Origin: Pseudomonadota bacterium
Lineage (GTDB): Bacteria; Pseudomonadota; Alphaproteobacteria; Rickettsiales; SXRF01
Direction: 5' to 3'
NCBI GenBank assembly: GCA_963205195.1
Contig: CAUJHR010000023.1
Coordinates: 89,054-153,053, forward strand
Length of the DNA: 64,000 bases
Below, piece after piece: positions 24,023 to 50,900 of this stretch; position 1 is the stretch's first letter, and each line of letters opens with the position of its first letter. The translations under genes and the position numbers were made by a program. Below the pieces are notes generated by a model that did not search any database, was not told the DNA's origin, and was given only the letters and a program-made list of their open reading frames with translations.

Positions 24023-24868
24023 GTGCTTAAAATGTCAAATATTGCCAGTAAATCAAATCTTGCAGAATCCTCTAATGAAACTATCGAAGACCGCAAGCTT
24101 AAAGAAATAGAATGGTCGGATTTTCGCCGTACCCTTACAAAAGAGGAAGATGGTGCCGATTTTGATAAATACACCGCCAATTTAAAATATTATTGTATCA
24201 TTGATAAGCAGACCGAAGAAATCAAGCAATGGCTTATCGCTAATACCAAAGGCAAGGATGTTTTTGAAATGGCTTGCGGTAATACTGCTATGCTTCCGCA
24301 TGTTGCCGGAATAGTCCGCACTGCTGTTGCAGCAGATATAGCACCCGTTACCATAGAGCTTGCAAAAAACAGCGCAAAAGGAAATCCTGACCTGGAGAAA
24401 ATTGATTACAGGGTTATGGACTGCGAAAAAACCGGTCTTCCTGATAATTCTTTTGATGTGATACTTGAGCAAGGCGCACTGCATCACATGGATCTGGATG
24501 CTGCATATAAGGAAGCAGCGCGTTTATTACGTCCCGGCGGAAAGTTTTTCTGCCTTGAAGCCATCCGCCATAATCCGGTTATACATTTATACCGCCGCCT
24601 GACCCCGCATCTCCGTACTGCTTGGGAAGTAGACCATATACTGGGCCAGCCGCAGGTTATGAAGGGCCTTGAGTATTTTAACAAAATAGAAAAGAAGCAT
24701 TATTATATTGTTTCCATTATTGCTGTTCCATTCCGTAATACTAAGCTTTTCAAGCCTTTGCTGGCAGTTTTAGAGGGTATTGATGCTGTTCTTACAAGGA
24801 TCCCAGGCATGCAATGGCTGGCATGGCAATGCTGGTTTGTTTTAAGCGAGCCAAAAAACAAGCAATAA
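24023..24868 (+). CDS. Class I SAM-dependent methyltransferase
   Basis: Motif I VFEMACGN and the post-I/II context DVILEQGALHHM...LRPGGKF. The track start is GTG 24023; an alternative is ATG 24032. It is the first gene of the glycan locus. Confidence 0.75.
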   Translation: MLKMSNIASKSNLAESSNETIEDRKLKEIEWSDFRRTLTKEEDGADFDKYTANLKYYCIIDKQTEEIKQWLIANTKGKDVFEMACGNTAMLPHVAGIVRTAVAADIAPVTIELAKNSAKGNPDLEKIDYRVMDCEKTGLPDNSFDVILEQGALHHMDLDAAYKEAARLLRPGGKFFCLEAIRHNPVIHLYRRLTPHLRTAWEVDHILGQPQVMKGLEYFNKIEKKHYYIVSIIAVPFRNTKLFKPLLAVLEGIDAVLTRIPGMQWLAWQCWFVLSEPKNKQ

Positions 24869-28222: not shown

Positions 28223-28237
28223 ACTATTATTATGCCG

Positions 28238-29560: not shown

Positions 29561-29725
29561 TTTTTACAAATAAGCTTATATCCTATTTACTCATAAGACT
29601 CTATTGATTATCGTTCCTCTGAAATTATTCATAATTCAAGATTAATAAAACCCTATGCCATTATAATTAAATATACTAATTGGTGTATATCTATTCAAAA
29701 AATATATTCAGGAAAATTTTATCTC

Positions 29726-31285: not shown

Positions 31286-31305
31286 CATAGTGGACTATGC
31301 GGCAG

Positions 31306-33750
31306 TTAATCCAGCGCAGCAGGGGAAAGCAGGATTAGTTTAGCATCTTCAACTAATAAGCTTGAGTTGCCAAAATGCTCTATGCCAATCTGTATATATG
31401 CTGCATCAGGCAAAGTTTTAAAGCGGTAAAGGAAGTTTCTATCTGGCCCTTTTTCCCCTAAGATGGTTTCGCTTAAAAACACTCTGGATGGAGAATTGTA
31501 GCCATCTTCTTTTATAGGCGCTCCTTGTTTGTTATATTGCGTAAGCCAGAATCTTAAAAGTCCATGGCCTTGTATATTAAATGCCATTTTATATTCTTTA
31601 TTACCTTGGACAGTTATTGGCTTTGATGTCTGCAGTAATGTTGATATATCCCGCTGGAAAATCCCCAAAGGCAAATGGGTTTGGGATATTTCACCATCTT
31701 TTGCTGCTTCAGATGAAAATAATATCCGTAGCAGTGTTTTTCGTCCGCCGACCAAAAAATATTTGGTTTTTTTCCAGCTTATATTATTAGCTGAAAAATC
31801 AAATATACTTAGGGGTTTCCTTAATAAGGGTGAGTTGCGTAAAGCATAAAGCTGGCTGCCACCAGATGTATAAACAAGCTCAGTATATTCAGGGTTAGCA
31901 ACGATTTCTTGTAATACTGAATTATAAAAAGTAGGCTGGGCACTTGCAACTATATATATATTAGTTATGCCGATCTTTTTAAGATTATTGAACCCTTCCT
32001 GAGGGCTGGCTGATTTATAAAAATCAGCCATACGGGGATCAAGGTTGCTTATCATCCGCCTGTTTGAATAATACATATCAGATGCTTCCATTGCCAGTAT
32101 CAAGGCATCCTGCGGTGTATTATCCCTGATAAAAGCCATAACCCTATGCTCAGGGTGTTCTTGCAAAGTTTTTTCCTGTAGCTGCCCTATATTTGATAAA
32201 TTCAGGCTATTAGCATAATATGGCTGTATGAATATTACGCCAAATTCTATTGCTATAAGCGATAATATCAGCCATGCGAATTTTCTGCGTATCCAATTAT
32301 CAGAATCAAAAAAAACTGCCAGCACCCAGCCGCTTAAGAATACCACAAAAGGCAGAATGATTAGCATATAGCGTTCTATGCGTATCATCTGATTTATGCC
32401 AAGAAACATAGAAATTATTATGCCTCCGTGATACGCTAATACTATGGCGACAGTCGCCCATAATATCATTTTGGGATTTGCGTTATCAGTGTGGTGATTA
32501 TCCGTTTTGAACCATTGTTTGATTTGTAAGCGGCTTAAAAAAAATGTAAGTGCGAAAATTAAAATCCAGAAATTCAGGGCATAGGATTCCGGGCTGAACC
32601 AGCCTTTAAATATGCCATACTGGATCTGGGCGGTAATTCCTTCTATACCCCGGCCAATAATAAAATAATCGTTCCATGCTAATTCTTTAAGGGTGAATAT
32701 AAGCGGGCTGTCACTTATAAGGGAACCCATCTTTTTATAATTCTGTAAATAAGGCCATAGGGCAAAAATAAAACAGGAGCTTATTAATGCTGAAATTCTT
32801 ATAGCCAGTATTTTCCAGCTTCCAAAGCCATGATAAAATAGCAATGCAACGATCATTAAAGGAGGAAAAAGCATAGCTTGCGAATGTGTCCACATTGTAA
32901 GCCCAAGAATACTGCCCTGAATAATCCCGCCTTTAAGGGGGGGCGTAGAAAAAGAAAATATTGTTGTGAATGCCAGCGCAAGCCCAAGGATAGGAAGGGG
33001 ATCTATAAGTGCATTTGCAGCCCCCATAAATAGAAGGGGGGTGGAAAGGAAAAGCAGGGCAGCGTATAGCCCGGTACGGCGGTTAATATATAGGCCAGAA
33101 GCGAATATCAATCCAGCAGCCAAAATAGCGCACCATGGGCTTATAAGGCGTGTAAGGCCAGGACTATCGGCATGGTCCTGCATAAGTTGCACAGCATAAA
33201 TGACTGCTATATAAAGTGGCGGGTGTGTCCATGGCCCATAAAATCCCGAAGGATATTTTTCTGGTGTTACCGGTGGATAATTATCCAATGTTTTATCATC
33301 AAAAATTATACGCCCGGTTGTTGCATATTCCAGTGAATCATTTTGGGTAAGAGGAATAAATATGCTATTTATAAGTAAGCCGATTATAAATAAAGCTATA
33401 AGGAAAACCGCTGCGCGCTCATCTTTTGTATAAGGCTCTTTTGTATATTTAATTATATTTTTTTCCTGCTTTGGAATCCATAAAATGGCGATCAGGTTTA
33501 TTATTACGAGAGCGCCAAAAATAGCATCTTTGTGTATTGCATGGCTTTTCCCCGGTAATAATAATAAAGCTGCTATAGAAATAAATCCTAAAAGGAATGG
33601 GGATAATGCAGCCGCAAAAAATAATGGTGTATGATATTTTTTTGAGGCATTTGACCAAGGCAATAAATTCACCAGCATGGCAGTTGCGCTATGGCATAGG
33701 AATAATGCAATTATAAGGTACAGCCATGCTGGAATTGAAGTTTCAATCAT
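31306..33750 (-). CDS. GT-C fold (ArnT/PMT_2-like) membrane glycosyltransferase with ~300-aa C-terminal soluble domain
   Basis: 814 aa. The N-terminal ~500 aa are polytopic, with an acidic first-loop motif (TQNDSLEYATTGRI) after a TM helix, as in polyprenyl-phosphate-sugar-dependent GT-C enzymes. The C-terminal part is beta-rich. The assignment is by architecture and neighbourhood, not a strong motif. Confidence 0.55.
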   Translation of the reverse strand: MIETSIPAWLYLIIALFLCHSATAMLVNLLPWSNASKKYHTPLFFAAALSPFLLGFISIAALLLLPGKSHAIHKDAIFGALVIINLIAILWIPKQEKNIIKYTKEPYTKDERAAVFLIALFIIGLLINSIFIPLTQNDSLEYATTGRIIFDDKTLDNYPPVTPEKYPSGFYGPWTHPPLYIAVIYAVQLMQDHADSPGLTRLISPWCAILAAGLIFASGLYINRRTGLYAALLFLSTPLLFMGAANALIDPLPILGLALAFTTIFSFSTPPLKGGIIQGSILGLTMWTHSQAMLFPPLMIVALLFYHGFGSWKILAIRISALISSCFIFALWPYLQNYKKMGSLISDSPLIFTLKELAWNDYFIIGRGIEGITAQIQYGIFKGWFSPESYALNFWILIFALTFFLSRLQIKQWFKTDNHHTDNANPKMILWATVAIVLAYHGGIIISMFLGINQMIRIERYMLIILPFVVFLSGWVLAVFFDSDNWIRRKFAWLILSLIAIEFGVIFIQPYYANSLNLSNIGQLQEKTLQEHPEHRVMAFIRDNTPQDALILAMEASDMYYSNRRMISNLDPRMADFYKSASPQEGFNNLKKIGITNIYIVASAQPTFYNSVLQEIVANPEYTELVYTSGGSQLYALRNSPLLRKPLSIFDFSANNISWKKTKYFLVGGRKTLLRILFSSEAAKDGEISQTHLPLGIFQRDISTLLQTSKPITVQGNKEYKMAFNIQGHGLLRFWLTQYNKQGAPIKEDGYNSPSRVFLSETILGEKGPDRNFLYRFKTLPDAAYIQIGIEHFGNSSLLVEDAKLILLSPAALD

Positions 33751-33765
33751 AATGCTTTTGCGAGG

Positions 33766-35757
33766 TTAATTATGCAATCCCATAACGTCCAGTGTGTTTA
33801 TGCGCCTTATGGTTGAGTTGAAATCCAAGCCTATTGTTTCTAAGTACCATTTTAGCGACATAGTGCGTGGCGCGTTCTCTTTCAGTATTTTTTCCATCGC
33901 ATATTCACGGGTTATCATTCCTTCACGTATCTGGTTGCTTCGGAAAGTATCAAATTCACTGAATCCGCATGTGGTTACATAAATATAATTATAAAATGGC
34001 GCCGTACCATCGCCAATCCGCCATGTGCTTGGGCTGTCCGGTGAAGTTTCCCAATTATAGGTTTCAAGCAGGGTTTTATCCACTTCATCTTCATTCCAGA
34101 GCATATGATTAAAGATAAAATAAAAATCTGTGCGCGGGGAAAGATAATATGATGTAAATGCGCTTAAACTATCTAAAAGTGAACTATTTAAATAAGCCGG
34201 ATTTTTAATAAATTGCCCTGCAAAATGCCCGATAAGTTTTATTTTGCGACTGATTGATAGATAATCCAGACGGTGCTTATCGAAATCAGGCTCAATTCCA
34301 CAAAAACCTGATTTAAAATCGGTATTTTCCAAAGGGTTTGCACACCATAGATCTAACTTTATGCCAGTTTGCGCTTTAAGCTCATTTACCACTGTGAAAA
34401 AATGCTTATCACCTGCCATGAACAGGGGAACCATTCCCAGGTCCGGCTTTTTAAGCCATGCTGAAACATTTTTGCGTATATTCTCACGTTTCTTCTTAAT
34501 ATCAGCAGATACCAGGATATTCTGTACCCCAAGCTCACCGCAAACCCTTGCAATATTACGGCGGGCAAGGTCGGTTACCATTCCCCAGTCATAGGTAAAA
34601 GTTATTGGCGTAAGCCCGAATTCTTTTTTAATGATATGCAGACCGTAACAACTGTCGCGCCCGCCACTGAAAGGAACTATTGCATCAGGGTTTTCTCCAT
34701 CCGTGCGATATTTCTGCAAGGAAGCAATGAATTCACGCTTGGCAGTTTCAGGGTCTATATTTTTATATTTAGTTTTATAGCCATGGCAATAATTACAAAC
34801 TCCCTGCCCATCAAATCTTATAAAGGGAAAAGTTTCAGGCAGTATGCAGCGCGTGCAGCGCTTAAGCCCGGCTAAGTTTTTTGCATTATAACGGATTAGA
34901 TTTTCATCGGCATTTTTTTGAATAATTACAGGCGGATTTTTTGCAGAAAAAACCATGTTCTGCTTAGTTGTGAGATTGCCATAAACTGGCAGCGGCAAAT
35001 TTTCCTGCGCCTTTCCAAAAGGCTGCATATCTAGATTATCAAGTGTAATATAAAGGCCGGTTTGCGGCTTGATCCAGTTAATTTCCTCAGTGCTTACCGC
35101 TTGTGCAAGTATATATCGTTCGGAAGCAAAAGTTAGTAATTTACGGCTTCTGTCTACAGAATAAAATAAATCCCCAGTATTAGTTGCCAGTACCATAAAA
35201 CCGGAATTATCATGCAGCCATGCAATAGAAGCAGAACCCTTAATCTCCTCAAAAAAATCCTGGGTCGCTGTTACAGGATGTTTTTTGCTGTTACAGGCTT
35301 TTTCCATATATGCCGCGACTATTTCAGTATCAACTTCCGCACTGCGCTGCAGATCTGGGTTTTTCTTCCATAATTCATTGGCATTAACTATGATACCATT
35401 ATGTACGACATTTACATCGCCGTAAGCCACTGGCTGGTTATTGCGGTCATCATCAGCGCTGCCATTGGTTACAAGGCGTGAATGGGCAATAATCGCGAGT
35501 GCGCCCCTGTTTTTATCCAGCTCATCCCACACTTCGCCTATAAGTTTATTATATTCCTGGGAAGCAATAAATTTTGATGCCGGATGTGCGCTTTTAAGAG
35601 TCCACGCCTTATTGCCTGCTGGCAGATAAATATGTATGCCAGCCGATTCTTTTCCCCTGCTTTCGGAAAACAAATATAGCTTTTTGAGTAATGCGCCGGT
35701 TTCCTCGCGGGAAATAATTGTATCTGCAGGAGCGACCAATCCAAAAATACCGCACAT
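33766..35757 (-). CDS. Fusion protein: class-II (Ntn) glutamine amidotransferase domain + N-acetyl sugar amidotransferase (WbpG/PseA family, PP-loop)
   Basis: The N-terminus MCGIFG has a Cys2 nucleophile, with HSRLVTNG and NGIIVN downstream. The C-terminal half starts with the Cys-rich CTRCILPETFPFIRFDGQGVCNYC and carries the PP-loop VPFSGGRDSCYGL, typical of the WbpG-type family. Confidence 0.8.
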   Translation of the reverse strand: MCGIFGLVAPADTIISREETGALLKKLYLFSESRGKESAGIHIYLPAGNKAWTLKSAHPASKFIASQEYNKLIGEVWDELDKNRGALAIIAHSRLVTNGSADDDRNNQPVAYGDVNVVHNGIIVNANELWKKNPDLQRSAEVDTEIVAAYMEKACNSKKHPVTATQDFFEEIKGSASIAWLHDNSGFMVLATNTGDLFYSVDRSRKLLTFASERYILAQAVSTEEINWIKPQTGLYITLDNLDMQPFGKAQENLPLPVYGNLTTKQNMVFSAKNPPVIIQKNADENLIRYNAKNLAGLKRCTRCILPETFPFIRFDGQGVCNYCHGYKTKYKNIDPETAKREFIASLQKYRTDGENPDAIVPFSGGRDSCYGLHIIKKEFGLTPITFTYDWGMVTDLARRNIARVCGELGVQNILVSADIKKKRENIRKNVSAWLKKPDLGMVPLFMAGDKHFFTVVNELKAQTGIKLDLWCANPLENTDFKSGFCGIEPDFDKHRLDYLSISRKIKLIGHFAGQFIKNPAYLNSSLLDSLSAFTSYYLSPRTDFYFIFNHMLWNEDEVDKTLLETYNWETSPDSPSTWRIGDGTAPFYNYIYVTTCGFSEFDTFRSNQIREGMITREYAMEKILKENAPRTMSLKWYLETIGLDFNSTIRRINTLDVMGLHN

Positions 35758-35758
35758 A

Positions 35759-37084
35759 TTATTTTCCAGATTCTTTGGCAGGGGTTGTATTGGAAAGCAT
35801 ATTCCAACCTAAAAGGAGGTAGCTTAATATCAGCATTATTGCAATACCGGTTATATAGCTAAGCGCAGTTGATATTGCTGCGCCTATAATCCCAAAGGTT
35901 GGGATAAGTAAAAAACAAAGTATGATGTTAACAATGGCAATACTCATATTCTGGATGGTCTGGTAAGCTGGATGGCCACTGGCCAGAAGTAAATTATCAA
36001 ATGGGGTAAAGCCTGATATAATAACATAGCTACCAAATAGGATAGCCAGCACTTTCCAGCCTTCAACCAATTCTTTATTGGCAATGAAATATTCCACGAA
36101 TATATAAAAACAAGGAATAACCAGTAATGCTAGTGCGAGCGTGCCGAGGAATACATAGATTTTGGAGTAATGCAATAATTGCTGTGCCTGCTTCCAATCC
36201 TTATCACGCAGGGCAGTTACCAGTATTGGGTTGAAATTGACGCGAAGCATGGAGAGTATATGTTGCAATCCATCTATGACCATAGCTGCAAAACTATAAA
36301 CACCCACATCGCTTTCACTAAGGAATACCCCAAGCAGCAAAACGTCAACCCTGGTGTTCATATCCAGTAAAATACTCCCAAGCGCACCTTTGAAACCAAA
36401 TTCAAGATGGGATTTTATCCATTTGCCACTAATGATCAAATGCTTGAGCAGGCCTGCCTTGCCCATGTAAACCAGCACAGAAATAATAGTAAGTGCTTCT
36501 GCGATAAAAAACGACCATGTGGCATAGGTAAAAGATAGTGAGGAGATACTTACGATAGCTATTCCTGCCAGTACGGTTAAATAACGTGTTGTTTGTAGCA
36601 GTGACAAGGCACGCATATGGCGCAAACCGTTAATATAGCTGATGAGCACTTTGTTAATAGGGAAAAGCATAAGGCCGAAGCCGGTGTAAGCTATAGCTTC
36701 TGCCGATTCTTCGCTTCCAAATATTGTTGCGATCCATGGCTCAGCCATATATATGCTACCGCCAAATACTATGCCAAACAGCAAGGTGACAGACATGGCG
36801 CTGGCAAGCATGGACCCACGTTCAACAATGTTTTCGCTATGGTAAGCAGTATAGCGCATTACCGAATTATGAATCCCGATTACGGCAACCTGCGATCCTA
36901 TAAGATACACGGCATAAGAAAGGTTGAAGATACCAAGCGAGGCTGAATCCCTGAATATCACAATAATGATATTCATAAGTACACCACTGGCAGCTAATAC
37001 AAAAAAGCTGCCCAGCGTCCACATTATATCACGGTTGATTTTATGCTTAAGCGCGGCCCTAATGAAGTTAATCAGCTTGTTCAT
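35759..37084 (-). CDS. MOP-superfamily oligosaccharide flippase (second copy)
   Basis: 441 aa with about 12-14 TM helices and a polysaccharide biosynthesis protein-like N-terminus. It lies only 1 nt upstream of the amidotransferase gene. Confidence 0.7.
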   Translation of the reverse strand: MNKLINFIRAALKHKINRDIMWTLGSFFVLAASGVLMNIIIVIFRDSASLGIFNLSYAVYLIGSQVAVIGIHNSVMRYTAYHSENIVERGSMLASAMSVTLLFGIVFGGSIYMAEPWIATIFGSEESAEAIAYTGFGLMLFPINKVLISYINGLRHMRALSLLQTTRYLTVLAGIAIVSISSLSFTYATWSFFIAEALTIISVLVYMGKAGLLKHLIISGKWIKSHLEFGFKGALGSILLDMNTRVDVLLLGVFLSESDVGVYSFAAMVIDGLQHILSMLRVNFNPILVTALRDKDWKQAQQLLHYSKIYVFLGTLALALLVIPCFYIFVEYFIANKELVEGWKVLAILFGSYVIISGFTPFDNLLLASGHPAYQTIQNMSIAIVNIILCFLLIPTFGIIGAAISTALSYITGIAIMLILSYLLLGWNMLSNTTPAKESGK

Positions 37085-37099: not shown

Positions 37100-38098
37100 T
37101 CAAGTGCTGGCTATAGGTTTACGGACAATATCGCGGCTGGTCATAGGTGGATTCAAGCGCTTGTTTTCCTCATAATCGAACCACATGGCAAAAGAAAAAG
37201 AGTTGAAGCTTAACGAAAAGCAAAATAGCCAGATAAGGAAGGTGATTTCAGGTATGCTGCCAACGGCTATCCACAGCCATATCAGGCGTATGAACATCAG
37301 TATGCTCATGGCCATTGTAAGGAACCCAAAAGCATAAAAAAACACAAGGGGATGGAAATTGCGGATAATATATTTTTCCTTAAGCCTCCAGAAAAACAGG
37401 CGCAGCAGCAGGTAATTTATAGTGAACATAACCACGCGTATTTTAATGCCTGATACTTCACCTACATTATATACCGGCTCAACCGGAACATCGATAACCC
37501 GCATATTTTCTACATTGAGCTTTACCAGCAGGTCATTAGGCTGCCCGTAACGCTTATACATTTTATCCCAGTTAATGGCATTGAGTGCTTTAGCATTGAT
37601 TCCGGTATAGCCTGTTTGTGAATCCGCAACATGCCAGTATCCCGAAGCGATCTTAGTAAGAAGCGACAGCACCGCATTGCCAAAAAAGCGGACTTTTGGA
37701 ATTTTGCGGAAGGCATCGCCGGTAACCAGGCGGTTGCCTTTAGTATAATCTGCAACATCATTTACGATAGGGTCTAAAATAGCTGGTAAATCGGCAGGAT
37801 TCATCTGAGCGTCACCAGCCATTACAACTGCTATGTCTATATTATTATCCCGGCTCCATTTATAGCCTGTAGCAATAGCGCCGCCGACTCCTTGATTAAT
37901 AGTGTGCTCAATCAACATTATTTTTGAGGTGCCGAATAATTTATGACCTCTTATGACTTCCGAAGTTCGGTCTTTGCTTAAATCATTGATGATAACGATA
38001 ACATCAACAAATTCAGGCATTGTATCGATAACCTTTAAAATCTGCGTTTCCTCGTTATAGGCTGGAACTACAACACTTATTTTATGGTTATGATACAT
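37100..38098 (-). CDS. GT2 polyprenyl-phosphate glycosyltransferase (ArnC/GtrB/DPM1-like)
   Basis: ISVVVPAYNEE, the IINDLSKDRT acidic motif and MAGDAQMNPADL, plus two C-terminal TM helices as in ArnC/GtrB. Confidence 0.85.
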   Translation of the reverse strand: MYHNHKISVVVPAYNEETQILKVIDTMPEFVDVIVIINDLSKDRTSEVIRGHKLFGTSKIMLIEHTINQGVGGAIATGYKWSRDNNIDIAVVMAGDAQMNPADLPAILDPIVNDVADYTKGNRLVTGDAFRKIPKVRFFGNAVLSLLTKIASGYWHVADSQTGYTGINAKALNAINWDKMYKRYGQPNDLLVKLNVENMRVIDVPVEPVYNVGEVSGIKIRVVMFTINYLLLRLFFWRLKEKYIIRNFHPLVFFYAFGFLTMAMSILMFIRLIWLWIAVGSIPEITFLIWLFCFSLSFNSFSFAMWFDYEENKRLNPPMTSRDIVRKPIAST

Positions 38099-38205: not shown

Positions 38206-38934
38206 CTAGCGCGACGTTACTATCTCATTACTGCCTAAAGGCGCGGTGGGAACCAAAGGTTTATTGCGTTTGCAAACCTCTATCAATTCGGGATCGGCAT
38301 TAAGTTTGGTAAGCAGTGATACAATTCCTGCAAATGCACGGCGCTTGGAAATAATAGCAATTGCAGTAAGGGTGATAAGGGCAATATCTAGCGGTACCGA
38401 GGAATGGGCAATATAAAATAAACCCAGTCTGCTTTTCCACGGTCTGACTAACTGGTTATATGCGATGTTAGGGTCGGGTGCACTTGCAACAATTTCACCT
38501 AAATCAGAGAATACTATTGATGAAAAATCGGTAATGCCGGGGCGCACGGCAAGCAGGCCTTTTTCCATTTCAGTATATAGTTTTACTTCGCGGTCAATTT
38601 GCGGACGCGGGCCTACCAGACTCATTTGTCCGCGCAATATATTCCATAATTGCGGCAGCTCATCCAATTTATAACGGCGCAGCAAATGCCCTAATCCCGT
38701 TATGCGGGAATCGTTAAGCCCGGTAGTATCAATTTTGCTTTTATCTGCACCCACTACCATAGTACGCAGCTTATGCATCCTAAATGGCACCCCATTTTTA
38801 CCTACGCGCAGAGGGCTGTATAGCGGCCATTGCCTATCCTGCCCGTATATTGCGATAAGGCAAATTATAATAACAGGCGAAAAGATAAATAATATTGCAG
38901 ATGATAAAACTATATCCAATATGCGTTTACCCAT
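38206..38934 (-). CDS. Undecaprenyl-phosphate sugar phosphotransferase (PglC/WbaP C-terminal type, monotopic PGT)
   Basis: ILDIVLSSAILFIFSPVIIICLIA re-entrant helix, FRMHKLRTM, DELPQLWNILRGQMSLVGPRP. I prefer ATG 38934 (MGKRILD); it abuts the upstream AKR stop. The track's 39006 start would overlap the AKR by 70 bp. Confidence 0.85.
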   Translation of the reverse strand: MGKRILDIVLSSAILFIFSPVIIICLIAIYGQDRQWPLYSPLRVGKNGVPFRMHKLRTMVVGADKSKIDTTGLNDSRITGLGHLLRRYKLDELPQLWNILRGQMSLVGPRPQIDREVKLYTEMEKGLLAVRPGITDFSSIVFSDLGEIVASAPDPNIAYNQLVRPWKSRLGLFYIAHSSVPLDIALITLTAIAIISKRRAFAGIVSLLTKLNADPELIEVCKRNKPLVPTAPLGSNEIVTSR

Positions 38935-38936
38935 TA

Positions 38937-39872
38937 TCAGCGCCTCGCTACTGTACTTAGGTCGGCGATATCTTCTTGCGATAAATTCCAGCCTGTTGCC
39001 CCACAATTATCTTTTATCTGGGAAGTGTTTTTTATACCTGCCAAACTTATGGAATCAGGGTGGGAATCAAGCACGAAACGCAGTGCCACCTGTGCCATAT
39101 TTTTATTATGGTGTTTTGCGATTTTCTTTAATACTTCTAGAATTCTTTCATAATAATCCCAGTTTTTTTCAGCAAATATTGAATCTTCACGGCTGCGTAT
39201 ATCCTCTTTTGCAAACCTGCTGCCCCTATTATATTTTCCTGAAAGAAGTCCTTGGGCAAGTGAGCCCCAGGATATAAAGCCTAAGCCATGGCTTATAGCC
39301 GTTTTTATTTGCTCATCGTATATTCTTTTTATAAGGCTATATTCCATAGTAAAACTAACGAGGCCATTGGGTGGATTCTTCATATCCGGCTGGGACGGGT
39401 CAATATTGGAAATTCCATACCAGCGGATCTTGCCCTGTTCACGTAATTTTTCCAGATCGTAAAAAATATCATTCAATGGCCGTTTTCCATCATGCCTGTG
39501 TATCTGGTAAAGGTCGATGGTTTCCCGCTTGAGGCGTTTTAAGCTGGCATTTATTGCTTCTTCAAGCCATGCTTGTGAATTATCATAAAAAGTCTGCTCA
39601 CCATTTACCCTGACCCCGAATTTGCTGGCAATAATAGCCTGTTTGCCAAGCGGGTGTTTATTTATTGTTTCTCCAAGCAAGGTTTCTGACATGCCAAGGC
39701 CATAAACATCCGCAGTATCAAAAAAATTAACGCCGGATTCTAGTGCAAAGTTTATTGCCTCTATTATTGAGTTCTGATCGTTTTCCTGCCATCCGTGCCC
39801 GCCAAGCTGCCAGCAGCCAAACCCAAGCCTGGATACACTTAGGTCGCTTTTCCCAAGTTTAACGATCTCCAT
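38937..39872 (-). CDS. Aldo/keto reductase
   Basis: 311 aa. GFGCWQLGG...NFFDTADVYG and later AKR blocks. Its start overlaps the E1-beta stop by 1 nt. Confidence 0.9.
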   Translation of the reverse strand: MEIVKLGKSDLSVSRLGFGCWQLGGHGWQENDQNSIIEAINFALESGVNFFDTADVYGLGMSETLLGETINKHPLGKQAIIASKFGVRVNGEQTFYDNSQAWLEEAINASLKRLKRETIDLYQIHRHDGKRPLNDIFYDLEKLREQGKIRWYGISNIDPSQPDMKNPPNGLVSFTMEYSLIKRIYDEQIKTAISHGLGFISWGSLAQGLLSGKYNRGSRFAKEDIRSREDSIFAEKNWDYYERILEVLKKIAKHHNKNMAQVALRFVLDSHPDSISLAGIKNTSQIKDNCGATGWNLSQEDIADLSTVARR

Positions 39873-40900
39873 TAAGAGCCAGCCGTAAGCATAGTGCGTA
39901 TTTTATCGGCAATACGCTTCGGCGTAATATAGTAAATATCTTCAAGTGCTCCGCTGGTTGGGGCAGGGGCATCCGGCAGAGTAATTCGTAGTGGCGATGA
40001 TTTCCAAGCGCTAACTGGTAAGGCTTCGCTTGCCCCGGCAATAATTTCTGCTCCAAGGCCGCATGTGCTCCATCCGCCATCAATTGCCGCAAGCCGTCCG
40101 GTTTTTCGCACGGAATCAATAGTTACACTATGGTCCACAGGAGCTATAACCCTTAAGTCTATAACTTCGGCAGAAATATTTTCTAAAGACAATAATTCAG
40201 CGGCTTCCAAAGCAAGCTGCGTAGAATAGCTGCAGGACACTAAAGTTACATCTTTGCCTGAACGTAATATCTGCGGTTTTATATCGCGTATATCTACAGG
40301 TTTTGCGGGTGGGAGTATTTCTGTTTTATCATAAAGCCAGCGGTCATCAATATATACCACTGGATCATTGGATAGGGCGGCGGCTATTAACATATCGCGG
40401 GCGTCAGCTACTGTTGCCGGCATTAATACGCGTAAGCCCGGTATATGGGCAAACCATGAATGAAGGGCCTGTGAATGTTGTGCTCCCTGCTGTCCGCCGC
40501 GGTTTACCACTGCGCGGAAAGTTGCTGCCGGATGCGCCTGACCACCAAGCATGTGTGACCATTTCGCGGCCTGGTTAACTATCGAATCCATGGCCAGTAT
40601 CATAAAATCAACACGCGGATGCAGCACTATTGGGCGGTAGCCACATAATGAAGCGCCAACTGCTGCGCCGGTTGTTGCAGCTTCCGATACTGGCGTATCA
40701 ATTACTCTTTCCTTGCCGAATTCCTTATCAAGTTCAAGCATGGAATTGCCCGCATACCACGGACTCCAAACACCTTGGCCGATAACAAATACTTCCGGGT
40801 AATTAGCAAGCAGGTAAGCATAACCCTCACGTATTGCCTGCCCGTAATTTATAGCGGCCTGGGTTTGTATTGCTGACGCTTTATTCGCTTGCATACACAT
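39872..40900 (-). CDS. Thiamine-diphosphate-dependent 2-oxoacid dehydrogenase E1 beta-like subunit (transketolase Pyr/C domains)
   Basis: 342 aa. GQGVWSPW...VIDTPVSEAATTGAAVGASLCGYRPIV and the C-terminal transketolase-C-like region. It overlaps the E1-alpha 3' end by 14-20 nt (ATG 40900 or 40894). Confidence 0.85.
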   Translation of the reverse strand: MCMQANKASAIQTQAAINYGQAIREGYAYLLANYPEVFVIGQGVWSPWYAGNSMLELDKEFGKERVIDTPVSEAATTGAAVGASLCGYRPIVLHPRVDFMILAMDSIVNQAAKWSHMLGGQAHPAATFRAVVNRGGQQGAQHSQALHSWFAHIPGLRVLMPATVADARDMLIAAALSNDPVVYIDDRWLYDKTEILPPAKPVDIRDIKPQILRSGKDVTLVSCSYSTQLALEAAELLSLENISAEVIDLRVIAPVDHSVTIDSVRKTGRLAAIDGGWSTCGLGAEIIAGASEALPVSAWKSSPLRITLPDAPAPTSGALEDIYYITPKRIADKIRTMLTAGS

Positions 40901-41963
40901 AATCCATTAAAGTGTTTTCAGCAGGCCAGGAATCTTTATGCACATCAGCGCTGATTTTTGTAAATTCAGCCCGTGTTTGCTTTGTAAATTCATCAAATTC
41001 AGCCCGTGTGTAATGATTATTGGAAATGAGGGATTTAAGCAAACGTTCTACAGGATCACGCATTTTCCACGCAGAAATATCTTCCGGTGAGCGCCGCAGG
41101 CCAACATCAATATCTTCACGTGGCCCTACATGTCCACGCCAGCGGTAGGTAATGGCTTCCAGAAGTGCAGGGGAGTTTTGCATACGTGCCTTTGAGATAA
41201 GTTCGCCCGACTCTTTCATTACGCTTGCCACATCATTGCCATCAATAGTTTTATGGTTGATACAGGCCGCTTCTGCAAACCGCGCTATTTTATCCGATGG
41301 CTGGCGGAGGTTTATGTCAAGGTGGCTGGAAAAAAGATTATTCTCAACTACAAATATAACAGGAAGTTTCATGATCGCCGCCATATTAAGGCATTCATGG
41401 AACACGCCTTCTTCGCACGCGCCATCCCCAAAGAATGCAACTGCTACATCGCCTGTTTTATCAAATTTTGCTGCTATCGCCGCACCAACGGCAAGGGGAA
41501 TTGTCCCGGCAACTATTGGCACAGAACCATAAAAGCCAACATCCTGTGCAAATAAGTGCATGGAGCCGCCGAACCCATGCGAACATCCTGTGGATTTTCC
41601 TAAAACCTCTGCAAATAATTTGCGAACATCTCCGCCCATCGCCAGGTAATGCCCATGCGAACGGTGGTTCCCAAAAGCCCTGTCACTTTTTCGTAAATTA
41701 GTTGCTATACCAACTGAAACCGCTTCCTGCCCGATAGCAAGGTGAACTGGGCATTTTACATGACCGGCAGTTACCATGTCTGCTATAGTTTCTTCCGCTA
41801 TACGGATATTTACCATGCCATGAAGGGCTTTGATAAGTGAGGAAGGATCGCAACCTTGTATATTAATTGCAGAAGCATAATGAATGGGATTTGCCAGGTC
41901 TCCAAGTTGTGATTGCCAGATAGTCAAGCTTTCTAATTCTTTCAGGGGCAAAATATGTTTCAT
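40881..41963 (-). CDS. Thiamine-diphosphate-dependent 2-oxoacid dehydrogenase E1 alpha-like subunit
   Basis: 360 aa. ThDP-binding motif GDGACEEGVFHECLNMAAIMKLPVIFVVENN. Confidence 0.85.
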   Translation of the reverse strand: MKHILPLKELESLTIWQSQLGDLANPIHYASAINIQGCDPSSLIKALHGMVNIRIAEETIADMVTAGHVKCPVHLAIGQEAVSVGIATNLRKSDRAFGNHRSHGHYLAMGGDVRKLFAEVLGKSTGCSHGFGGSMHLFAQDVGFYGSVPIVAGTIPLAVGAAIAAKFDKTGDVAVAFFGDGACEEGVFHECLNMAAIMKLPVIFVVENNLFSSHLDINLRQPSDKIARFAEAACINHKTIDGNDVASVMKESGELISKARMQNSPALLEAITYRWRGHVGPREDIDVGLRRSPEDISAWKMRDPVERLLKSLISNNHYTRAEFDEFTKQTRAEFTKISADVHKDSWPAENTLMDYVYASE

Positions 41964-42079
41964 CGTTTTATAAGGGCTGTATTAAATCAAATTAACTTGC
42001 TTTTGCCGAATTATTACTTAGACTTCCGCCAAAATACAAGGTTTATTTGATTTTTCAAAGTGTAGCATTCATCATATTT

Positions 42080-43666
42080 ATGGAAAAAATAAAATTAGCG
42101 GTTATCGGTTGTGGTTACTGGGGCAAGAACCTGGTGCGTAATATGTCAGAATTAGGGGTTCTGGCGGCAGTTGTTGATAACCATTTGCCTACAGCCTCAG
42201 CTATTGCAAAAACATATAATGTGCTCCCAAAAAGCTTTGAAGAAATATTGAATGATAAGGAAATTGTAGCAGTTGTAATTGCTTCTTCAGCAGTTGCACA
42301 TGCTCCTATAGCTAAGGCATCTCTGCATGCCGGGAAGCATGTTTTTGTTGAAAAGCCGTTAGCATTGGATATGGCTGATGCGAAAGATCTTTGCACGCTT
42401 GCAAATGAAAAAAAACTTACACTTATGGTTGGGCATTTGCTGCAATACCATCCTGCGTTCATTGCTTTGTTTCAGGCGGTCAAAGCAGGCCAAATTGGTA
42501 AGCTTCGCTATATCCAGTCGCACCGCTTGAGCTTTGGCAAGATTCGTACTGAAGAAAATGTATTATGGAGTTTTGCGCCCCATGATATTTCCATGATACT
42601 TGCATTGGCAGGCAGCTCCCCGGAAATAGTTTCAGCTCAGGCGGCCACGCAGGTAACGCAGCATGTTGCTGATATTGCAACCTTGCATCTAAGTTTTGCT
42701 GATAACCTCAAGGCTCATATAATGGTATCCTGGCTGCATCCGGTAAAGGAGCATAGGCTTACTGTAATAGGTGAGAAGGGGGCGCTGGTTTTTGATGACA
42801 GCCTGCCTTGGGAACAGAAATTAACCCTGCATAAGAATAATATTGTTTTAAAAGATGGAAATCCAGTGGCAGAAAAAGGCGAAATCACTCCAATTGCTCT
42901 CAAGCAAGATGAACCTCTTAAAGCTGAATGTGAGCATTTTTTAAATGCAATTAAAAATAATTCTCCTGTGCGAACTGATGCTGATGAAGGTATACGTGTA
43001 CTGGAAACACTGGTTGCTGCTGAAAAATCACTTAAGCAAAAACGGGAAATACAAATGGCAGAAACGGAAAAAGATTATTTCGTACATGAAACAGCTATTG
43101 TTGATAAAGGATGCGAAATTGGTGCTGGCAGCAAAATATGGCATTTCAGCCATATATTATCCGGAACTAAAATTGGCAGCCAGGTTATAGTCGGCCAGAA
43201 TGTTATGATAGGGCCTAATGTTACGGTTGGCAATCGCTGTAAGATACAAAACAATGTCAGCCTTTATAAAGGCGTAATACTTGAAGAAGGCGTGTTCTGC
43301 GGGCCATCTTGTGTATTTACCAATGTAAATACCCCGCGCGCAGAAATTGAACGCAAGGAAGAATTCCTGACCACTCCAGTTGGCAGGGGGGCTACAATTG
43401 GTGCGAATGCTACAATTGTCTGCGGAAATTCCATAGGTGAATATTGTTTGATTGGCGCTGGGGCAGTAGTTACTAAAAATGTGAAGCCGCATGCGCTTAT
43501 GGTAGGGAATCCTGCAAAGCAGATTGGTTGGGTAAGCCATGCCGGGGACCGTTTAGGAAAGGATCTTACCTGTCCGCGTGAGAACCGCCGCTACCGGGAA
43601 AATGCTGACGGCAATCTGGAAGAAATAATGGAAAATAATAAAAATGAAAAAATCTGTGCAGCCTAA
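42080..43666 (+). CDS. Fusion protein: Gfo/Idh/MocA oxidoreductase (WbpB/WlbA-like) + left-handed beta-helix N-acetyltransferase (WbpD/WlbB-like)
   Basis: N-terminal Rossmann [14 protein letters not shown]. The C-terminal ~190 aa are hexapeptide repeats ([49 protein letters not shown]). I prefer ATG 42080 over the track's TTG 42047. Confidence 0.8.
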
Positions 43667-45008
43667 ACTCGTCAAAAAAGAAGCTGATTTCGAAAAGATA
43701 CTTGAGAAATTCGAGCAGTGCAGCGCAACTATAGCCATCATGGGTATGGGCTATGTAGGGTTTCCACTGGCGCTTGCCACTCACAAACAAGGATTTTCCG
43801 TTCTGGCTTTTGATGTTGATGAAAATAAAGTAAAAAAGCTAAATAAAGGTGAGTCTTACCTAAAAGGAGTGGCGGACGAAAACATACAAAATATGGTTAA
43901 AGAGGGCAGGTTCCACGCTACTACCGATGTGTATGAACTGAAAAAGGCTGATGCGATTATTATGTGTGTCCCGACCCCGCTTACCAAAAACCGCGAACCG
44001 GATTTAAGTTACGTTGAAACAACTACCAGCATGATCGCCTCGCAACTTAGGCAGGGGCAGCTTGTGGTGCTTGAATCAACTACCTATCCCGGCACTACGC
44101 AGGATTTGATCAAGCCTATATTGGAAGAAACCGGGCTTGTGTGCGGCGAAGATTTTTTTATCGCCTATTCACCTGAGCGCGAAGATCCAGGCAATGGCTA
44201 TTTCTGCACGCATTCCATTCCAAAAGTTGTAGGGGCGGATGATGAGAAATCGCAAAAATTAGCTGTAGCACTTTATAATAATATAGTTTCCAAGGCGGTT
44301 TTGGTTTCTTCCGCCGCTACAGCAGAAGCAGTTAAGCTCACTGAAAATATTTTCCGTTCGGTTAATATTGCTTTGGTCAACGAACTGAAAATGGTGTTTT
44401 CCAAAATGGATATTGATGTCTGGGAAGTAATAGATGCGGCGAAAACAAAGCCGTTCGGTTTCATGCCGTTTTATCCGGGTCCTGGTGTAGGCGGGCACTG
44501 CATACCTATAGACCCTTTTTATCTTACATGGAAATCGCGGGAATTCGGCATGCCAACCCGCTTTATTGAACTTGCAGGGCAGATCAATGAACGCATGCCT
44601 GATTATGTTATAAATTGTCTGCGTGAAGGTTTGGACAGGCAATTTAAGAAGGGTTTGAATGGCTCGCGTATACTTATGCTTGGCATTGCTTATAAAAAAG
44701 ATGTCGATGATATGCGTGAAAGCCCGTCAATGATCATTTTCGAACGCTTGCTGGAATTTGGTGCAATAGTTGAATACCATGATGATTTTATCCCTGTAAT
44801 TCCGCACACGCGTGAGCATGATAACCTTTCGGGGCGGAAATCTGTTTCGCTTTCTAAAGAATTGCTTGCCGGGTTTGATGCTGTGGTTATAGCTACGGGG
44901 CATAGCAATATTGATTACGCTATGGTGGTTGAGCATAGTAAACTTATAATTGATACGCGCAATGTAACCGCGAAATTCGGTAAGCAAGCACATATCATTA
45001 ACGCTTAA
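43644..45008 (+). CDS. UDP-N-acetyl-D-glucosamine 6-dehydrogenase family (WbpA-like nucleotide-sugar dehydrogenase)
   Basis: [16 protein letters not shown] Rossmann motif and catalytic Cys context [14 protein letters not shown]. Confidence 0.85.
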
Positions 45009-45025: not shown

Positions 45026-46183
45026 ATGTCCGTAAAAGAAAACAGAAGAATTGAATTTATAGATTTAGCGGCGCAACAAGCTCTTATACGCCCAAAAATA
45101 GATGCTGCGATTGCCCGGGTTCTTGATCATGGCGGGTATATAATGGGCAAAGAAGTGCCAGAGCTTGAAAAGCAGCTTGCGGAATTTGCCGGAGCAAAAT
45201 ACTGCCTGAGTTGTTCTAATGGAACCGATGCACTGGCTTTGGTGCTTATGGCAAAAAATATAAAAGCAGGCGATGCGGTATTTGTCCCAAGCTTTACCTT
45301 TGCAGCAAGCGCCGAAGTAATCGCCTGGCTTGGTGCAGCAGCATTTTTTGTGGATATATTGCCAGATAGTTTCAATATGGATCCGGCTAGCCTGATACAG
45401 GCTATTGCGGCGGCAAAGAAACAAGGGCTTAACCCAGCAGCTATTATGCCGGTTGACCTGTTCGGACAGCCAGCTGATTATGATAAAATTCTCCCTATTG
45501 CAGAAAAAAATGATATGTGGGTGCTGTGTGATTCGGCGCAAGGGTTTGGCGGGATGTATCACGGGCGCAAAGTAGGAAGTATTGGCCTTGCTACCGCAAC
45601 AAGTTTCTTCCCCGCAAAACCCCTCGGCTGTTATGGCGACGGTGGCGCAGTATTTACTGATGATAAAGAGCTTTATGATGTGATGGCAAGTCTGCGCGTT
45701 CATGGCAAAGGCGATGATAAATACGATAATGTCCGTATCGGGATGAATGGTAGGCTTGATACATTGCAGGCTGCAATATTGATCGAAAAACTGGCTATAT
45801 TCCCAGATGAGCTGATTAAACGGCAACGAGTGGCCGATCATTATAATAATCTGCTTGAAAATTTTATAGTTATTCCAAAATTACCAAAGGGATTGCACTC
45901 TGCCTGGGCCCAGTACACTTTGACCGCTGCTTCCAATAAGCAGCGTGATGAATTGCAAGCAGCGCTTAAACAGGCGGGAGTTCCCTCAATGGTTTACTAT
46001 CCGAAACCTTTGCATCTGCAAACTGCTTATAAGAATTTTCCTACTGCAACTGGCAAAGGACTTCCTGTTTGCGAGGATCTGGCCAGCAGGGTATTTAGCT
46101 TGCCGATGCACCCTTACCTTGAGGATGAAACCATAAAATATATTTCCCAGTCGCTAATTCTTGCTTTTAAGAAGGCTGCCTGA
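45026..46183 (+). CDS. DegT/DnrJ/EryC1-family PLP-dependent sugar aminotransferase (WbpE/WlbC-like)
   Basis: 385 aa. CSNGTDAL, DSAQGFGG and the PLP-lysine context TSFFPAKPLGCYGDGGAV. Confidence 0.85.
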   Translation: MSVKENRRIEFIDLAAQQALIRPKIDAAIARVLDHGGYIMGKEVPELEKQLAEFAGAKYCLSCSNGTDALALVLMAKNIKAGDAVFVPSFTFAASAEVIAWLGAAAFFVDILPDSFNMDPASLIQAIAAAKKQGLNPAAIMPVDLFGQPADYDKILPIAEKNDMWVLCDSAQGFGGMYHGRKVGSIGLATATSFFPAKPLGCYGDGGAVFTDDKELYDVMASLRVHGKGDDKYDNVRIGMNGRLDTLQAAILIEKLAIFPDELIKRQRVADHYNNLLENFIVIPKLPKGLHSAWAQYTLTAASNKQRDELQAALKQAGVPSMVYYPKPLHLQTAYKNFPTATGKGLPVCEDLASRVFSLPMHPYLEDETIKYISQSLILAFKKAA

Positions 46184-47441
46184 TTCCCTTATCGTCTTTT
46201 ATATTAAGGGATGCAATTGCAACACTTACACTATACCACAGCAATATTGCCGGCCAATTTGAAAATTGGCTTTGCGTTGGCATAAAGGGAAAGAAATTAC
46301 TTATCATGCAGGCAAATGCAAAGGCTGGTATTATACGGTAAATACCACGCCCGTTAATCAGGGATTTAAGGCAGGTATAGATTAAGAAGGAAATCATGGT
46401 TATAAATAATATAAGCCCTACAGCTCCAGCTTCTGAGAACCATTCCAGATAGGGATTATGCGGGTGTATATTGCAATAAAAAATTTTATTATTTACAATA
46501 AGGTCCGGGCATATTGCCCTGAATCCTTTAGGGCCAGCACCTGTCACCCAATTCTCAATTCCTATATAATAACCTGCCTTGAAAAGCTGGCCATAATTCG
46601 ATACGAAAAAATTTGAAATAGTAAGGTAAAAATCATAGGCGCGGGCTTGTACCCATGTTTGTGTTGCAAGCATAAAGCTTACGCTGCAAATTAATATCGC
46701 GATTCCCGCCAGCAATATTTTCCTGAAAGTTGGCTCTATAATTGCAATGTATATTGCCAGCGCCGAAATAGCTATAACGGTGCTGAAAAAAGCGGTGCGC
46801 TCGCCACTAAGCATGATTACCAATATGCTGCTTAGAATTAAAAAAATGCTTAAAGCAACCGCAATTCTTTTTCTATTTAAAATGGAAAAGAACAAGCAAA
46901 TACCTGCTGTCGGCAATAAGAGCTTTGCCATGAAAATACCAACTTTTACGTTATTAATAGGGCCTGTAAGCCTGCCGCTGCTATCACGTATATGTCCGGT
47001 TATCGACATGCCGGTTATGTATTGCCAAAGGGTGTCAATCATTACCAAAATAAGCATGAATGCTAATATTTTTCCAAGTAGTAATAATGGCTCGCTTCTG
47101 CTAAGGACCCAATATTTAAGTGCAGCATAAAGCAATATATAGCGTATCCACGGGGCGGCTATAAATATGGATTCCCTGGGCGTAATAGCAAAAGGGGTTA
47201 CTATCACAAGCATCCATAGCCATGCTATCAGTCCAGTTTTTACAAATGGATCTTGAAGCCACCCCCACTCTTTATGCTCAAAGCTTTGCCATAACCATAA
47301 TAGCGAAATAATTACGCAGCAGGCATCTGCAGATCCACGGCTGAATATCAGCGCCCAAGGTAGTAAAATGGTAACAAAATAAGCAGCTTTCCATTTTATA
47401 TTAACGTCTTGCAGAAGATTTTGCCAGTCTGTCTTAATCAT
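46167..47441 (-). CDS. O-antigen ligase family (Wzy_C domain, WaaL-like) membrane protein
   Basis: 424 aa and polytopic. The periplasmic loop motif HPHNPYLEWFSEAGAVGLILFI matches the H-N-x-x-L-x(4)-E-x-G-x-x-G ligase signature. Its 3' end overlaps the convergent aminotransferase gene by 17 bp. Confidence 0.7.
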   Translation of the reverse strand: MIKTDWQNLLQDVNIKWKAAYFVTILLPWALIFSRGSADACCVIISLLWLWQSFEHKEWGWLQDPFVKTGLIAWLWMLVIVTPFAITPRESIFIAAPWIRYILLYAALKYWVLSRSEPLLLLGKILAFMLILVMIDTLWQYITGMSITGHIRDSSGRLTGPINNVKVGIFMAKLLLPTAGICLFFSILNRKRIAVALSIFLILSSILVIMLSGERTAFFSTVIAISALAIYIAIIEPTFRKILLAGIAILICSVSFMLATQTWVQARAYDFYLTISNFFVSNYGQLFKAGYYIGIENWVTGAGPKGFRAICPDLIVNNKIFYCNIHPHNPYLEWFSEAGAVGLILFITMISFLIYTCLKSLINGRGIYRIIPAFAFACMISNFFPFMPTQSQFSNWPAILLWYSVSVAIASLNIKDDKGIRQPS

Positions 47442-50724: not shown

Positions 50725-50788
50725 ATTAATAATAAAATCAATGATGTTTAAACCATTTTATATATTCAGCTTATTCTGGGCGCAAGGA

Positions 50789-50878: not shown

Positions 50879-50900
50879 GAATAGCTGTTAAATATTTTTT

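Follow-up and report, generated by a model that had tools for sequence, protein, structure and literature searches.

The closest described systems to the subject of this study are pairs of proteins resembling the alpha and beta subunits of the E1 component of pyruvate dehydrogenase (PDH), which are held to attach a pyruvate-derived two-carbon (C2) unit to nucleotide ketosugars. Such pairs include Plm8/9 of paulomycin biosynthesis (PMC4802897) and EvdU5/EvdS3, an E1-like pair adding a pyruvate-derived C2 branch to a ketosugar in everninomicin biosynthesis (PMC10338323), and the same role is held for pairs in the avilamycin, aldgamycin, kosinostatin and kibdelomycin pathways (PMC12247030; PMC4753412; PMC4802897; PMC10338323). 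A 2025 review named these enzymes alphaKADH2 and described ketone carboligation in vitro for KbDH-alpha/beta; it also reported C-3 branching by alphaKADH2 enzymes for the aldgamycins and kibdelomycin, and that the branch ketone is later reduced (paulomycin), methylated, oxidised or transaminated (kibdelomycin) (PMC12247030). The AviB1/B2 homologues of the paulomycin pathway, Pau11/Pau12, work alongside an aldo/keto reductase (AKR), Pau7, for which NADPH-dependent reduction of the C-4' acetyl branch to hydroxyethyl was shown in vitro (PMC4753412). Here we describe an E1alpha/E1beta-like pair that is encoded in a four-gene run with an AKR and a phosphoglycosyl transferase (PGT), within a 64,000-nucleotide stretch (hereafter the window) of contig CAUJHR010000023.1 from a Rickettsiales bacterium.

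Branched sugars of lipopolysaccharide (LPS) have been assigned to YerE-like single-chain enzymes, and alphaKADH2 pairs to secondary metabolites (PMC12247030). In the O-antigen loci that encode YerE/YerF (yersiniose A) and ErwE/ErwF, thiamine diphosphate (ThDP)-dependent addition to a nucleotide 4-ketosugar of an activated acyl unit, taken from a 2-oxo acid, is followed by NAD(P)H-dependent reduction; YerE is a single-chain ThDP enzyme of the decarboxylase superfamily, termed in the source papers a flavoprotein of the acetolactate-synthase type, that acts on a CDP-3,6-dideoxy sugar (PMC9306805). The window system differs in having a two-subunit E1-type enzyme and, as we read it, a pathway based on uridine diphosphate (UDP)-linked N-acetylhexosamine (HexNAc). 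An earlier analysis of this DNA (the original prediction) had considered the enzyme type to be unlike YerE and this was borne out, as the E1 pair did not have the features of a single-chain decarboxylase-superfamily enzyme, with PF02775 giving only a sub-threshold overlap (21.2 versus 21.9 bits).

All four genes were found on the minus strand where the original prediction had placed them, and both the open reading frame (ORF) list and the sequence agreed with its description of overlapping or closely coupled genes. They encode an E1alpha-like ThDP-binding subunit (40881..41963, 360 aa; PF00676, 2e-54), an E1beta-like subunit (39872..40900, 342 or 340 aa; PF02779 and PF02780), an AKR (38937..39872, 311 aa; PF00248, 2e-62) and a small monotopic, PglC-like PGT (38206..38934, 242 aa; PF02397, 5e-47), with Pfam E-values for the four proteins ranging from 1e-25 to 1e-62. 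The start of E1beta is either ATG 40900 or ATG 40894, giving an overlap with E1alpha of 20 or 14 nt, respectively; the public gene call has the 14-nt version. The E1beta stop and the AKR start have one base in common (TAATG, 39874-39870). The AKR and PGT genes, previously described as abutting, are indeed closely coupled but are separated by a 2-nt spacer, as the bases "TA" stand between the AKR stop TGA (38939-38937) and the PGT ATG at 38934. A TTG start at 39006 for the PGT ORF was rejected as an over-extension. The run sits within a Wzx/Wzy polysaccharide locus, in keeping with the O-antigen-type setting originally proposed. Its arrangement is more than chance: the same eight-gene operon, together with a divergent wbpB-D/wbpA/wbpE operon, recurs in three other assemblies (loci L007, L032 and L033 of the comparison below) at 57-90% protein identity. 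The exact window E1alpha protein was found in metagenome sources only.

The closest solved structures to the window E1 subunits were those of human PDH E1alpha and E1beta, and the canonical catalytic residues are intact. The ThDP motif GDGACEEG...VVENN that had been claimed for E1alpha was confirmed at residues 179-209 (G179-N209), and His278 of the same subunit occupies, in the alignment, the place of the catalytic alpha-His in human PDH E1. Alignment of E1beta to its human counterpart showed that the Glu of "PVSE" and the His of "AQHSQ" are kept. The fold and catalytic residues are those of the E1 of PDH and acetoin dehydrogenase complexes, and some relatives of the window proteins carry source annotations as PDH or acetoin:DCPIP oxidoreductase subunits. 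Based on these likenesses, the pair could be thought an ordinary pyruvate or acetoin dehydrogenase E1 that lies by chance in a polysaccharide locus and has its E2 and E3 encoded elsewhere. We regard this explanation as very improbable. Both subunits scored under the curated equivalog cut-offs: E1alpha gave 285.9 bits against TIGR03182 (cut-off 393.85) and E1beta 242 bits against NF006667 (cut-off 321), while the pair gave 192 bits against TIGR03181 (cut-off 411) and 236 bits against NF008854 (cut-off 454). The genes are also translationally coupled to those of the AKR and PGT, a genomic linkage different from that of complex-type E1s.

Two further differences from complex-type E1s lie within E1alpha itself. 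The phospho-serine region of human PDH, "GHSMSDPG", is replaced by "GHVGPRED" in the window protein, and the loop past "ENN" also differs. Moreover, sixteen E1alpha positions were at least 95% conserved in 85 sequences of the clade to which the window protein belongs and at most 10% conserved in 11 outgroup sequences (P72, S128, P149, T154, A164, E184, S213, H214, R220, Q221, R228, V279, D286, V287, R307 and L308). These signature positions cluster in two loops, 205-228 and 279-291, that correspond by alignment to the substrate-channel loops of human PDH E1, which we take to form the walls of its substrate channel. The clade-specific loop residues would fit a changed second substrate, and their remodelling is a further point against a complex-type E1.

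The window had been described as having no E2 or E3 gene, and we confirmed this in two ways. A tblastn search of the 64-kb window with an E2 reference gave no match, and family scans of nearly all non-nested window ORFs of at least 150 aa identified no match to E2 or E3 families among the ORFs scanned. The sole flavoprotein disulfide reductase of the window is a thioredoxin reductase (23001-23939).

To place the pair among its relatives we drew on a protein search, which gave 120 relatives among the matches listed (53-99% identity), each of them from a genome or metagenome of bacteria that are uncultured or have been little studied, and on 26 loci from a genome scan and 80 from a metagenome scan, against all of which reference proteins were searched by tblastn. 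A census was taken of the clade loci (E1alpha at least 45% identical) having at least 3 kb of upstream and at least 4 kb of downstream sequence. These formed 33 non-redundant groups, in which features were scored within 6 kb. E1beta and a small PGT were each present in 33/33, and a PglF-type UDP-GlcNAc 4,6-dehydratase in 19/33. A DegT aminotransferase without an AKR was found in 25/33 and an AKR without a DegT in 8/33, with both in 0/33. Precomputed Pfam annotation of seven loci agreed with the tblastn census. An AKR and a DegT were seen together beside the E1 pair in L084 alone, which has two PGT genes and was left out of the census due to its short flank.

The original prediction had named an E2 partner, or a grouping of the subunits with the E1s of central metabolism, as results that would count against it, and both checks turned out in support of the prediction. 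E2 was found in 0/33 related loci, as in the window, and among the more distant E1s from the same scans, which served as the outgroup, an E2 was adjacent in 6/13 and a PGT in 0/13. In a neighbour-joining tree (no support values) the polysaccharide-linked E1alphas were separate from the E2-linked E1alphas, so that the window subunits stand apart from the E2-linked E1s as well as falling below the curated PDH thresholds. Together, the sub-cut-off PDH scores, the separate clade and the invariant linkage to a PGT without an E2 make it a well supported reading of the sequences that the E1 pair is a stand-alone, polysaccharide-dedicated enzyme and not one of central metabolism.

Polysaccharide-dedicated E1 pairs are also widespread. 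The clade comprises at least 594 confirmed metagenomic matches, and the expectation that such a pair would be unusual in a Gram-negative polysaccharide locus was not upheld; the enzyme type is known, the setting is a variant one, and the pairs are not exotic. No clade member was detected by tblastn in a plasmid collection, where all 254 matches were below 60% identity, and at most 44% among the matches listed. The best Streptomyces plasmid match had 42% identity to the window alpha subunit and a non-sugar context. On the Streptomyces griseofuscus plasmid pSGRIFU1 (L119:15004-20534), E1alpha/beta genes are followed by genes for a 1100-aa condensation-domain protein, an acyl carrier protein and a phosphopantetheinyl transferase, a case of a stand-alone E1 pair that lies in a secondary-metabolite setting unrelated to sugars.

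Three gene arrangements were seen among the related loci. The window shares with L032 (a Rickettsiales metagenome-assembled genome, MAG), L033 and L007 the order E1alpha-E1beta-AKR-PGT-GT2-Wzx-amidotransferase-814-aa ORF, facing wbpB-D/wbpA/wbpE. More commonly the order was (PglF)-methyltransferase-DegT-E1alpha-E1beta-PGT, or some rearrangement of these genes, as in a Micavibrio MAG, in Caedimonas varicaedens and Caenimonas sedimenti, and in many metagenomes. A second AKR arrangement, PGT-AKR-E1alpha-E1beta-PglF, was found in L057, L077, L088, L098 and L113. The pairing of E1 with an AKR that was proposed for the window is present there, but the link is weaker than had been assumed, as DegT outnumbered AKR by 25 to 8 in the 33 groups and the AKR-containing module also occurs without E1 (see below). 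In the neighbour-joining tree (again no support values) the AKR-type loci were scattered among the DegT-type loci, which is expected if AKR and DegT are interchangeable tailoring steps on one ketone.

Based on these comparisons, the explanation we favour, while holding its chances to be about even, is that the E1 pair is a stand-alone alphaKADH2-type ThDP carboligase that places a C2 branch on a ketosugar destined to be the initiating sugar of a polysaccharide. We infer the donor, the acceptor, the regiochemistry, the order of the steps and the AKR substrate as follows. The E1 pair would decarboxylate pyruvate to hydroxyethylidene-ThDP, and a UDP-linked ketosugar would receive the C2 unit at its carbonyl, becoming a branched sugar with a C-acetyl group and a tertiary alcohol. 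For most related loci this ketosugar would be the PglF product, UDP-2-acetamido-2,6-dideoxy-hexos-4-ulose. The AKR would then reduce the branch carbonyl to 1-hydroxyethyl, and in most relatives a DegT would convert it to 1-aminoethyl instead. The coupled PGT would start the repeat unit by moving the finished sugar-1-phosphate onto undecaprenyl phosphate, and the unit would be extended with 2,3-diacetamido-uronic acids from the divergent wbp operon, flipped by Wzx and polymerised. Three observations fit this C2-branching explanation: every census locus has either an AKR or a DegT but not both, the two interchange repeatedly in the tree, and both fates of the ketone have precedents.

Likened by description, the window pair has much in common with the alphaKADH2 pairs AviB1/AviB2, Pau11/Pau12 (the same pair as Plm8/Plm9), EvdU5/EvdS3 and KbDH: adjoining E1alpha and E1beta genes, catalytic residues that are intact here, no E2 or E3, and a glycan-building cluster with ketone-processing genes and, for the window pair, a candidate ketosugar-forming one nearby. 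It is unlike them in being encoded in a Gram-negative Wzx/Wzy surface-polysaccharide locus. In addition, the alphaKADH2 pairs are accompanied by dTDP-deoxysugar genes and a Leloir glycosyltransferase, whereas the clade described here is accompanied by an initiating PGT and, in 19/33 groups, by a UDP-GlcNAc 4,6-dehydratase. The work on Pau7 makes the precedent stronger than the original prediction knew. Like the window AKR, Pau7 (AKR5I) is encoded with an E1 pair and has the catalytic tetrad; it differs in that the window AKR is AKR11/13-like and has close homologues that also occur with a PGT but without E1.

The PGT fits the role of the enzyme that initiates the repeat unit. It has the features of a small monotopic, PglC-like enzyme (~200-250 aa, a single Bac_transf domain and an Asp-Glu dyad): its PF02397 domain spans residues 3-195, it aligns with PglC and with the catalytic domain of WbaP, and the dyad is kept in "KLDELPQL". 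Small PglC-like PGTs usually act on HexNAc-derived 6-deoxy sugars. The initiating-sugar pathways PglF-PglE-PglD-PglC, for N,N'-diacetylbacillosamine, and Bordetella WlbL-WlbF-WlbG, for 2-acetamido-4-methylamino-fucose (FucNAc4NMe), resemble the E1 loci in bringing together a membrane-anchored UDP-GlcNAc 4,6-dehydratase, a DegT, often a methyltransferase, and a small monotopic PGT. The E1 loci differ from them in usually missing the N-acetyltransferase and in having the E1 pair between DegT/AKR and PGT.

That resemblance also bears on a different explanation, in which the AKR or DegT processes the ring C-4 ketone of the PglF product and the E1 pair acts otherwise, by chemistry that would be new for E1 enzymes. 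The AKR would then lead to a sugar of the QuiNAc or FucNAc type (N-acetylquinovosamine or N-acetylfucosamine), possibly after lipid transfer, and the DegT to a 4-amino sugar that is then N-methylated, as in Bordetella FucNAc4NMe. The combination of PglF, DegT, methyltransferase and small PGT does resemble the known 4-amino-6-deoxy-HexNAc pathways, and the DegT proteins scored best against C-4 aminotransferase models, e.g., PseC and WecE. We consider this explanation unlikely, though a good deal less so than a stray complex-type E1. It leaves the E1 pair without a substrate, as no carbonyl persists after reduction or amination at C-4, and an acyl donor could not be formed by E1 alone, which lacks an oxidant. 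The E1 genes are set among those for PglF, AKR/DegT and PGT and translationally coupled to them, and addition to a ketone is the only documented chemistry of stand-alone E1 pairs in sugar pathways (PMC4802897, PMC10338323, PMC12247030).

Several observations weigh against the C2-branching explanation, and the first of them also speaks for processing at C-4. Two loci (L120:6317-11702 and L121:8001-13869) encode homologues of the window methyltransferase, AKR and PGT with no E1 within 8 kb. The identities to the window proteins in L120 and L121 were, respectively, 56% and 49% for the AKR, 62% and 61% for the PGT and 63% and 58% for the methyltransferase, matching those among the E1-containing loci. 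The window PGT is likewise as close to these E1-less PGTs (61-62%) as to the PGTs of E1 loci (51-75%). AKR and PGT overlap or abut in both loci, forming a two-gene unit. Methyltransferase-AKR-PGT is therefore an independent module, to which the E1 pair is an addition. The AKR may do no more than reduce the ring C-4 ketone, and the neighbouring genes do not tell which step E1 carries out.

The AKR itself adds to these points. Its catalytic tetrad is D52, Y57, K84 and H125, and the closest structures were the AKR11/13-type 3n2t, 1pz1 and 1pyf. It scored 120 bits against the YdjG model compared with 52 (DkgA) and 40 (DkgB) bits against AKR5-type models, and so resembles the AKR11/13-type proteins GSP69, IolS and YdjG and not the 2,5-diketogluconate-reductase (AKR5) type; it is therefore outside the family of Pau7. 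The E1-associated AKRs also comprise two groups with 32-40% mutual identity, barely above that of unrelated AKRs. We consider the AKR a candidate ketoreductase for either the branch carbonyl or ring C-4, and a role like that of YerF or Pau7 to be uncertain. Other points on the same side are that the kinship with AviB1/B2, Pau11/12 and KbDH is drawn from the descriptions of those systems, that the tree carries no support values, and that our literature search gave no glycan with an acetamido 4-C-(1-hydroxyethyl) or 4-C-(1-aminoethyl) sugar, nor one with a 4-C-acetyl HexNAc. Nor did the literature searched give an account of E1-type pairs in Gram-negative polysaccharide loci, although the bioinformatic study on which the 2025 review builds (Krug et al. 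2024, Angew. Chem. e202403535), which lay outside it, may list some. No mention of E1 genes in Coxiella and Legionella LPS loci was found in the literature searched, and such loci were not used as a lead.

In favour of a link between ThDP chemistry and these modules, L122 (L122:6001-9907) encodes an AKR 45% identical to that of the window and a small PGT, and after them a transketolase split into N- and C-terminal subunits; all of these genes are broken by apparent frameshifts in the long-read contig. The transketolase would represent a second ThDP enzyme type, of a kind proposed for ketosugar branching, in the place of the E1 pair.

The remaining point against C2 branching as set out above concerns the acceptor. 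A PglF-type 4,6-dehydratase was not found in the 64-kb window by tblastn or family scans, nor was a 4,6-dehydratase within 10 kb in the three syntenic loci. As none is near the window pair, the acceptor would be either made elsewhere in the genome or the 3-keto product of WbpB, whose domain is the only ketosugar-forming enzyme found in the window and thus, unlike in the relatives with PglF, the only candidate there to supply an acceptor. This domain is part of a fusion (42047..43666, plus strand, 539 aa) of a WbpB-like UDP-sugar 3-dehydrogenase of the GFO/IDH/MocA family and a WbpD-like hexapeptide N-acetyltransferase, assigned from PF01408, PF22725 and PF00132 with matches to NF040723 and TIGR03570, and the fusion is kept in L007, L032 and L033. 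It is followed on the plus strand by genes for a WbpA/WbpO-like nucleotide-sugar 6-dehydrogenase (43644..45008; TIGR03026, 429 bits versus a cut-off of 190) and a WbpE-like DegT-family aminotransferase (45026..46183; NCBIfam PseC- and LegC-type matches), which was only 29-32% identical by tblastn to the DegT accompanying E1 pairs in other loci. We read this divergent wbpB-D/wbpA/wbpE operon as a probable route to 2,3-diacetamido-2,3-dideoxy-uronic acids.

If the carboligation were the same but its acceptor here were the WbpB 3-keto sugar, UDP-2-acetamido-2-deoxy-3-oxo-glucuronic acid, a uronic acid branched at C-3 would result. The window has no sugar-oxidising enzymes besides WbpB-D, WbpA and WbpE, their operon faces the E1 operon across 83 bp in all four syntenic loci, none with PglF within 10 kb, and alphaKADH2 branching at C-3 has precedent in the aldgamycins and kibdelomycin (PMC12247030). 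We nevertheless judge this acceptor improbable. The window E1 (47-62%) and PGT (51-62%) proteins are orthologous to those in PglF-containing loci that lack WbpB, and the fusion of WbpB to the acetyltransferase of the normal 3-amino pathway implies that this pathway runs to completion. The sugars typically taken by small PglC-like PGTs, as noted above, also argue against a uronic acid.

Other roles for the E1 pair were considered and rejected. These were the supply of N- or O-acetyl groups from pyruvate (there is neither an oxidant nor a lipoyl carrier), a 2-oxoacid sink for an aminotransferase (AKR-type loci have no aminotransferase), a phosphonate-type decarboxylase route (no phosphoenolpyruvate mutase and the wrong ThDP family) and ring cleavage of a 4-keto sugar (no plausible leaving group).

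The favoured C2-branching explanation has a broader form, which we advance tentatively and with somewhat less confidence: that the clade is a large unrecognised family of E1-type carboligases dedicated to the initiating sugar, converting the PglF product to an eight-carbon, C-4-branched HexNAc, with AKR and DegT partners repeatedly swapped. Clade members were found in Rickettsiales- and Holosporales-like alphaproteobacteria, Micavibrio, betaproteobacteria, spirochaetes and marine lineages, with at least several hundred metagenomic members. If this is correct, a C-C bond-forming step of a few actinomycete antibiotics would become part of mainstream Gram-negative envelope biosynthesis, carried by many uncultured bacteria that include relatives of intracellular symbionts. 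New branched amino sugars would be predicted at the reducing end of O-antigen or capsule repeat units, and the 1-hydroxyethyl- and 1-aminoethyl-branched HexNAc would be sugar types not yet described in any glycan. For glycobiology there is a testable route, the PglF product with pyruvate and E1alpha/beta, then AKR or DegT, and biocatalysis would gain hundreds of new ketone-accepting ThDP carboligases. For annotation, we suggest that E1alpha/beta genes beside a small PGT should not be labelled pyruvate or acetoin dehydrogenase.

The same-strand run continues past the PGT with a GT2 glycosyltransferase resembling polyprenyl-phosphate sugar synthases (37100..38098, minus strand; PF00535, weak PpgS/AglJ-type NCBIfam matches), which was 87-90% identical in L032 and L033. 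It is followed by a Wzx-type flippase (35759..37084, minus strand; PF01943 and PF13440), syntenic in the same two loci, and by a 663-aa fusion of a glutamine amidotransferase and a WbuX-like N-acetyl-sugar amidotransferase (33766..35757, minus strand), with an N-terminal class-II glutamine amidotransferase domain (PF13537, residues 92-217) and a TIGR03573 match at residues 299-628. Separate HisH/HisF-like genes stand in place of this fusion in L037 and L038. The last gene of the conserved run is an 814-aa ORF (31306..33750, minus strand) that gave no Pfam or NCBIfam match and is matched at the corresponding place in L032 and L033 by homologues of 43-46% identity; near the AKR-type E1 locus L057 there is a relative of 32% identity. 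On the other side, an 83-bp divergent intergenic region (41964..42046) between E1alpha and the wbpB-D fusion gene is presumed to be a shared promoter region. A promoter scan of this region gave only a weak -35/-10-like match (42058..42031, minus strand), and a terminator scan gave terminator-like sites at chance level.

A class I S-adenosylmethionine methyltransferase (24023..24868, plus strand) is a candidate accessory of the AKR-PGT module, and its homologues adjoin the AKR-type E1 loci L046, L067, L088 and L113. The locus, from ~24 to 47.5 kb, also contains GalE, GT4, methyltransferase and Wzy-like genes and a second flippase-like gene at 24-31 kb and 46-47 kb. Flippase-like genes were seen at 28238-29560 and 35759-37084, and Wzy- or ligase-like genes at 24878-26254, 29726-31285 and 46167-47441; the locus may encode more than one polysaccharide. 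Its G+C content is below that of its flanks (0.34-0.39 in 24001-34000 versus 0.44-0.49 in the upstream housekeeping region), and such a drop is common for horizontally exchanged O-antigen loci. The flanks are of housekeeping type, with tRNA synthetases, LptF/G and the alphaproteobacterial regulator TrcR. Two large adjoining minus-strand ORFs (55483-60071; 1021 aa and 479 aa), neither with an NCBIfam match, are flanked by a FadB-like gene and the gene for an amino-acid transporter. Close to the polysaccharide locus but outside it, at 49315-52898, a gene for a cytochrome P450 (469 aa) is divergent from one for a TOL_0244-family TonB-dependent receptor.

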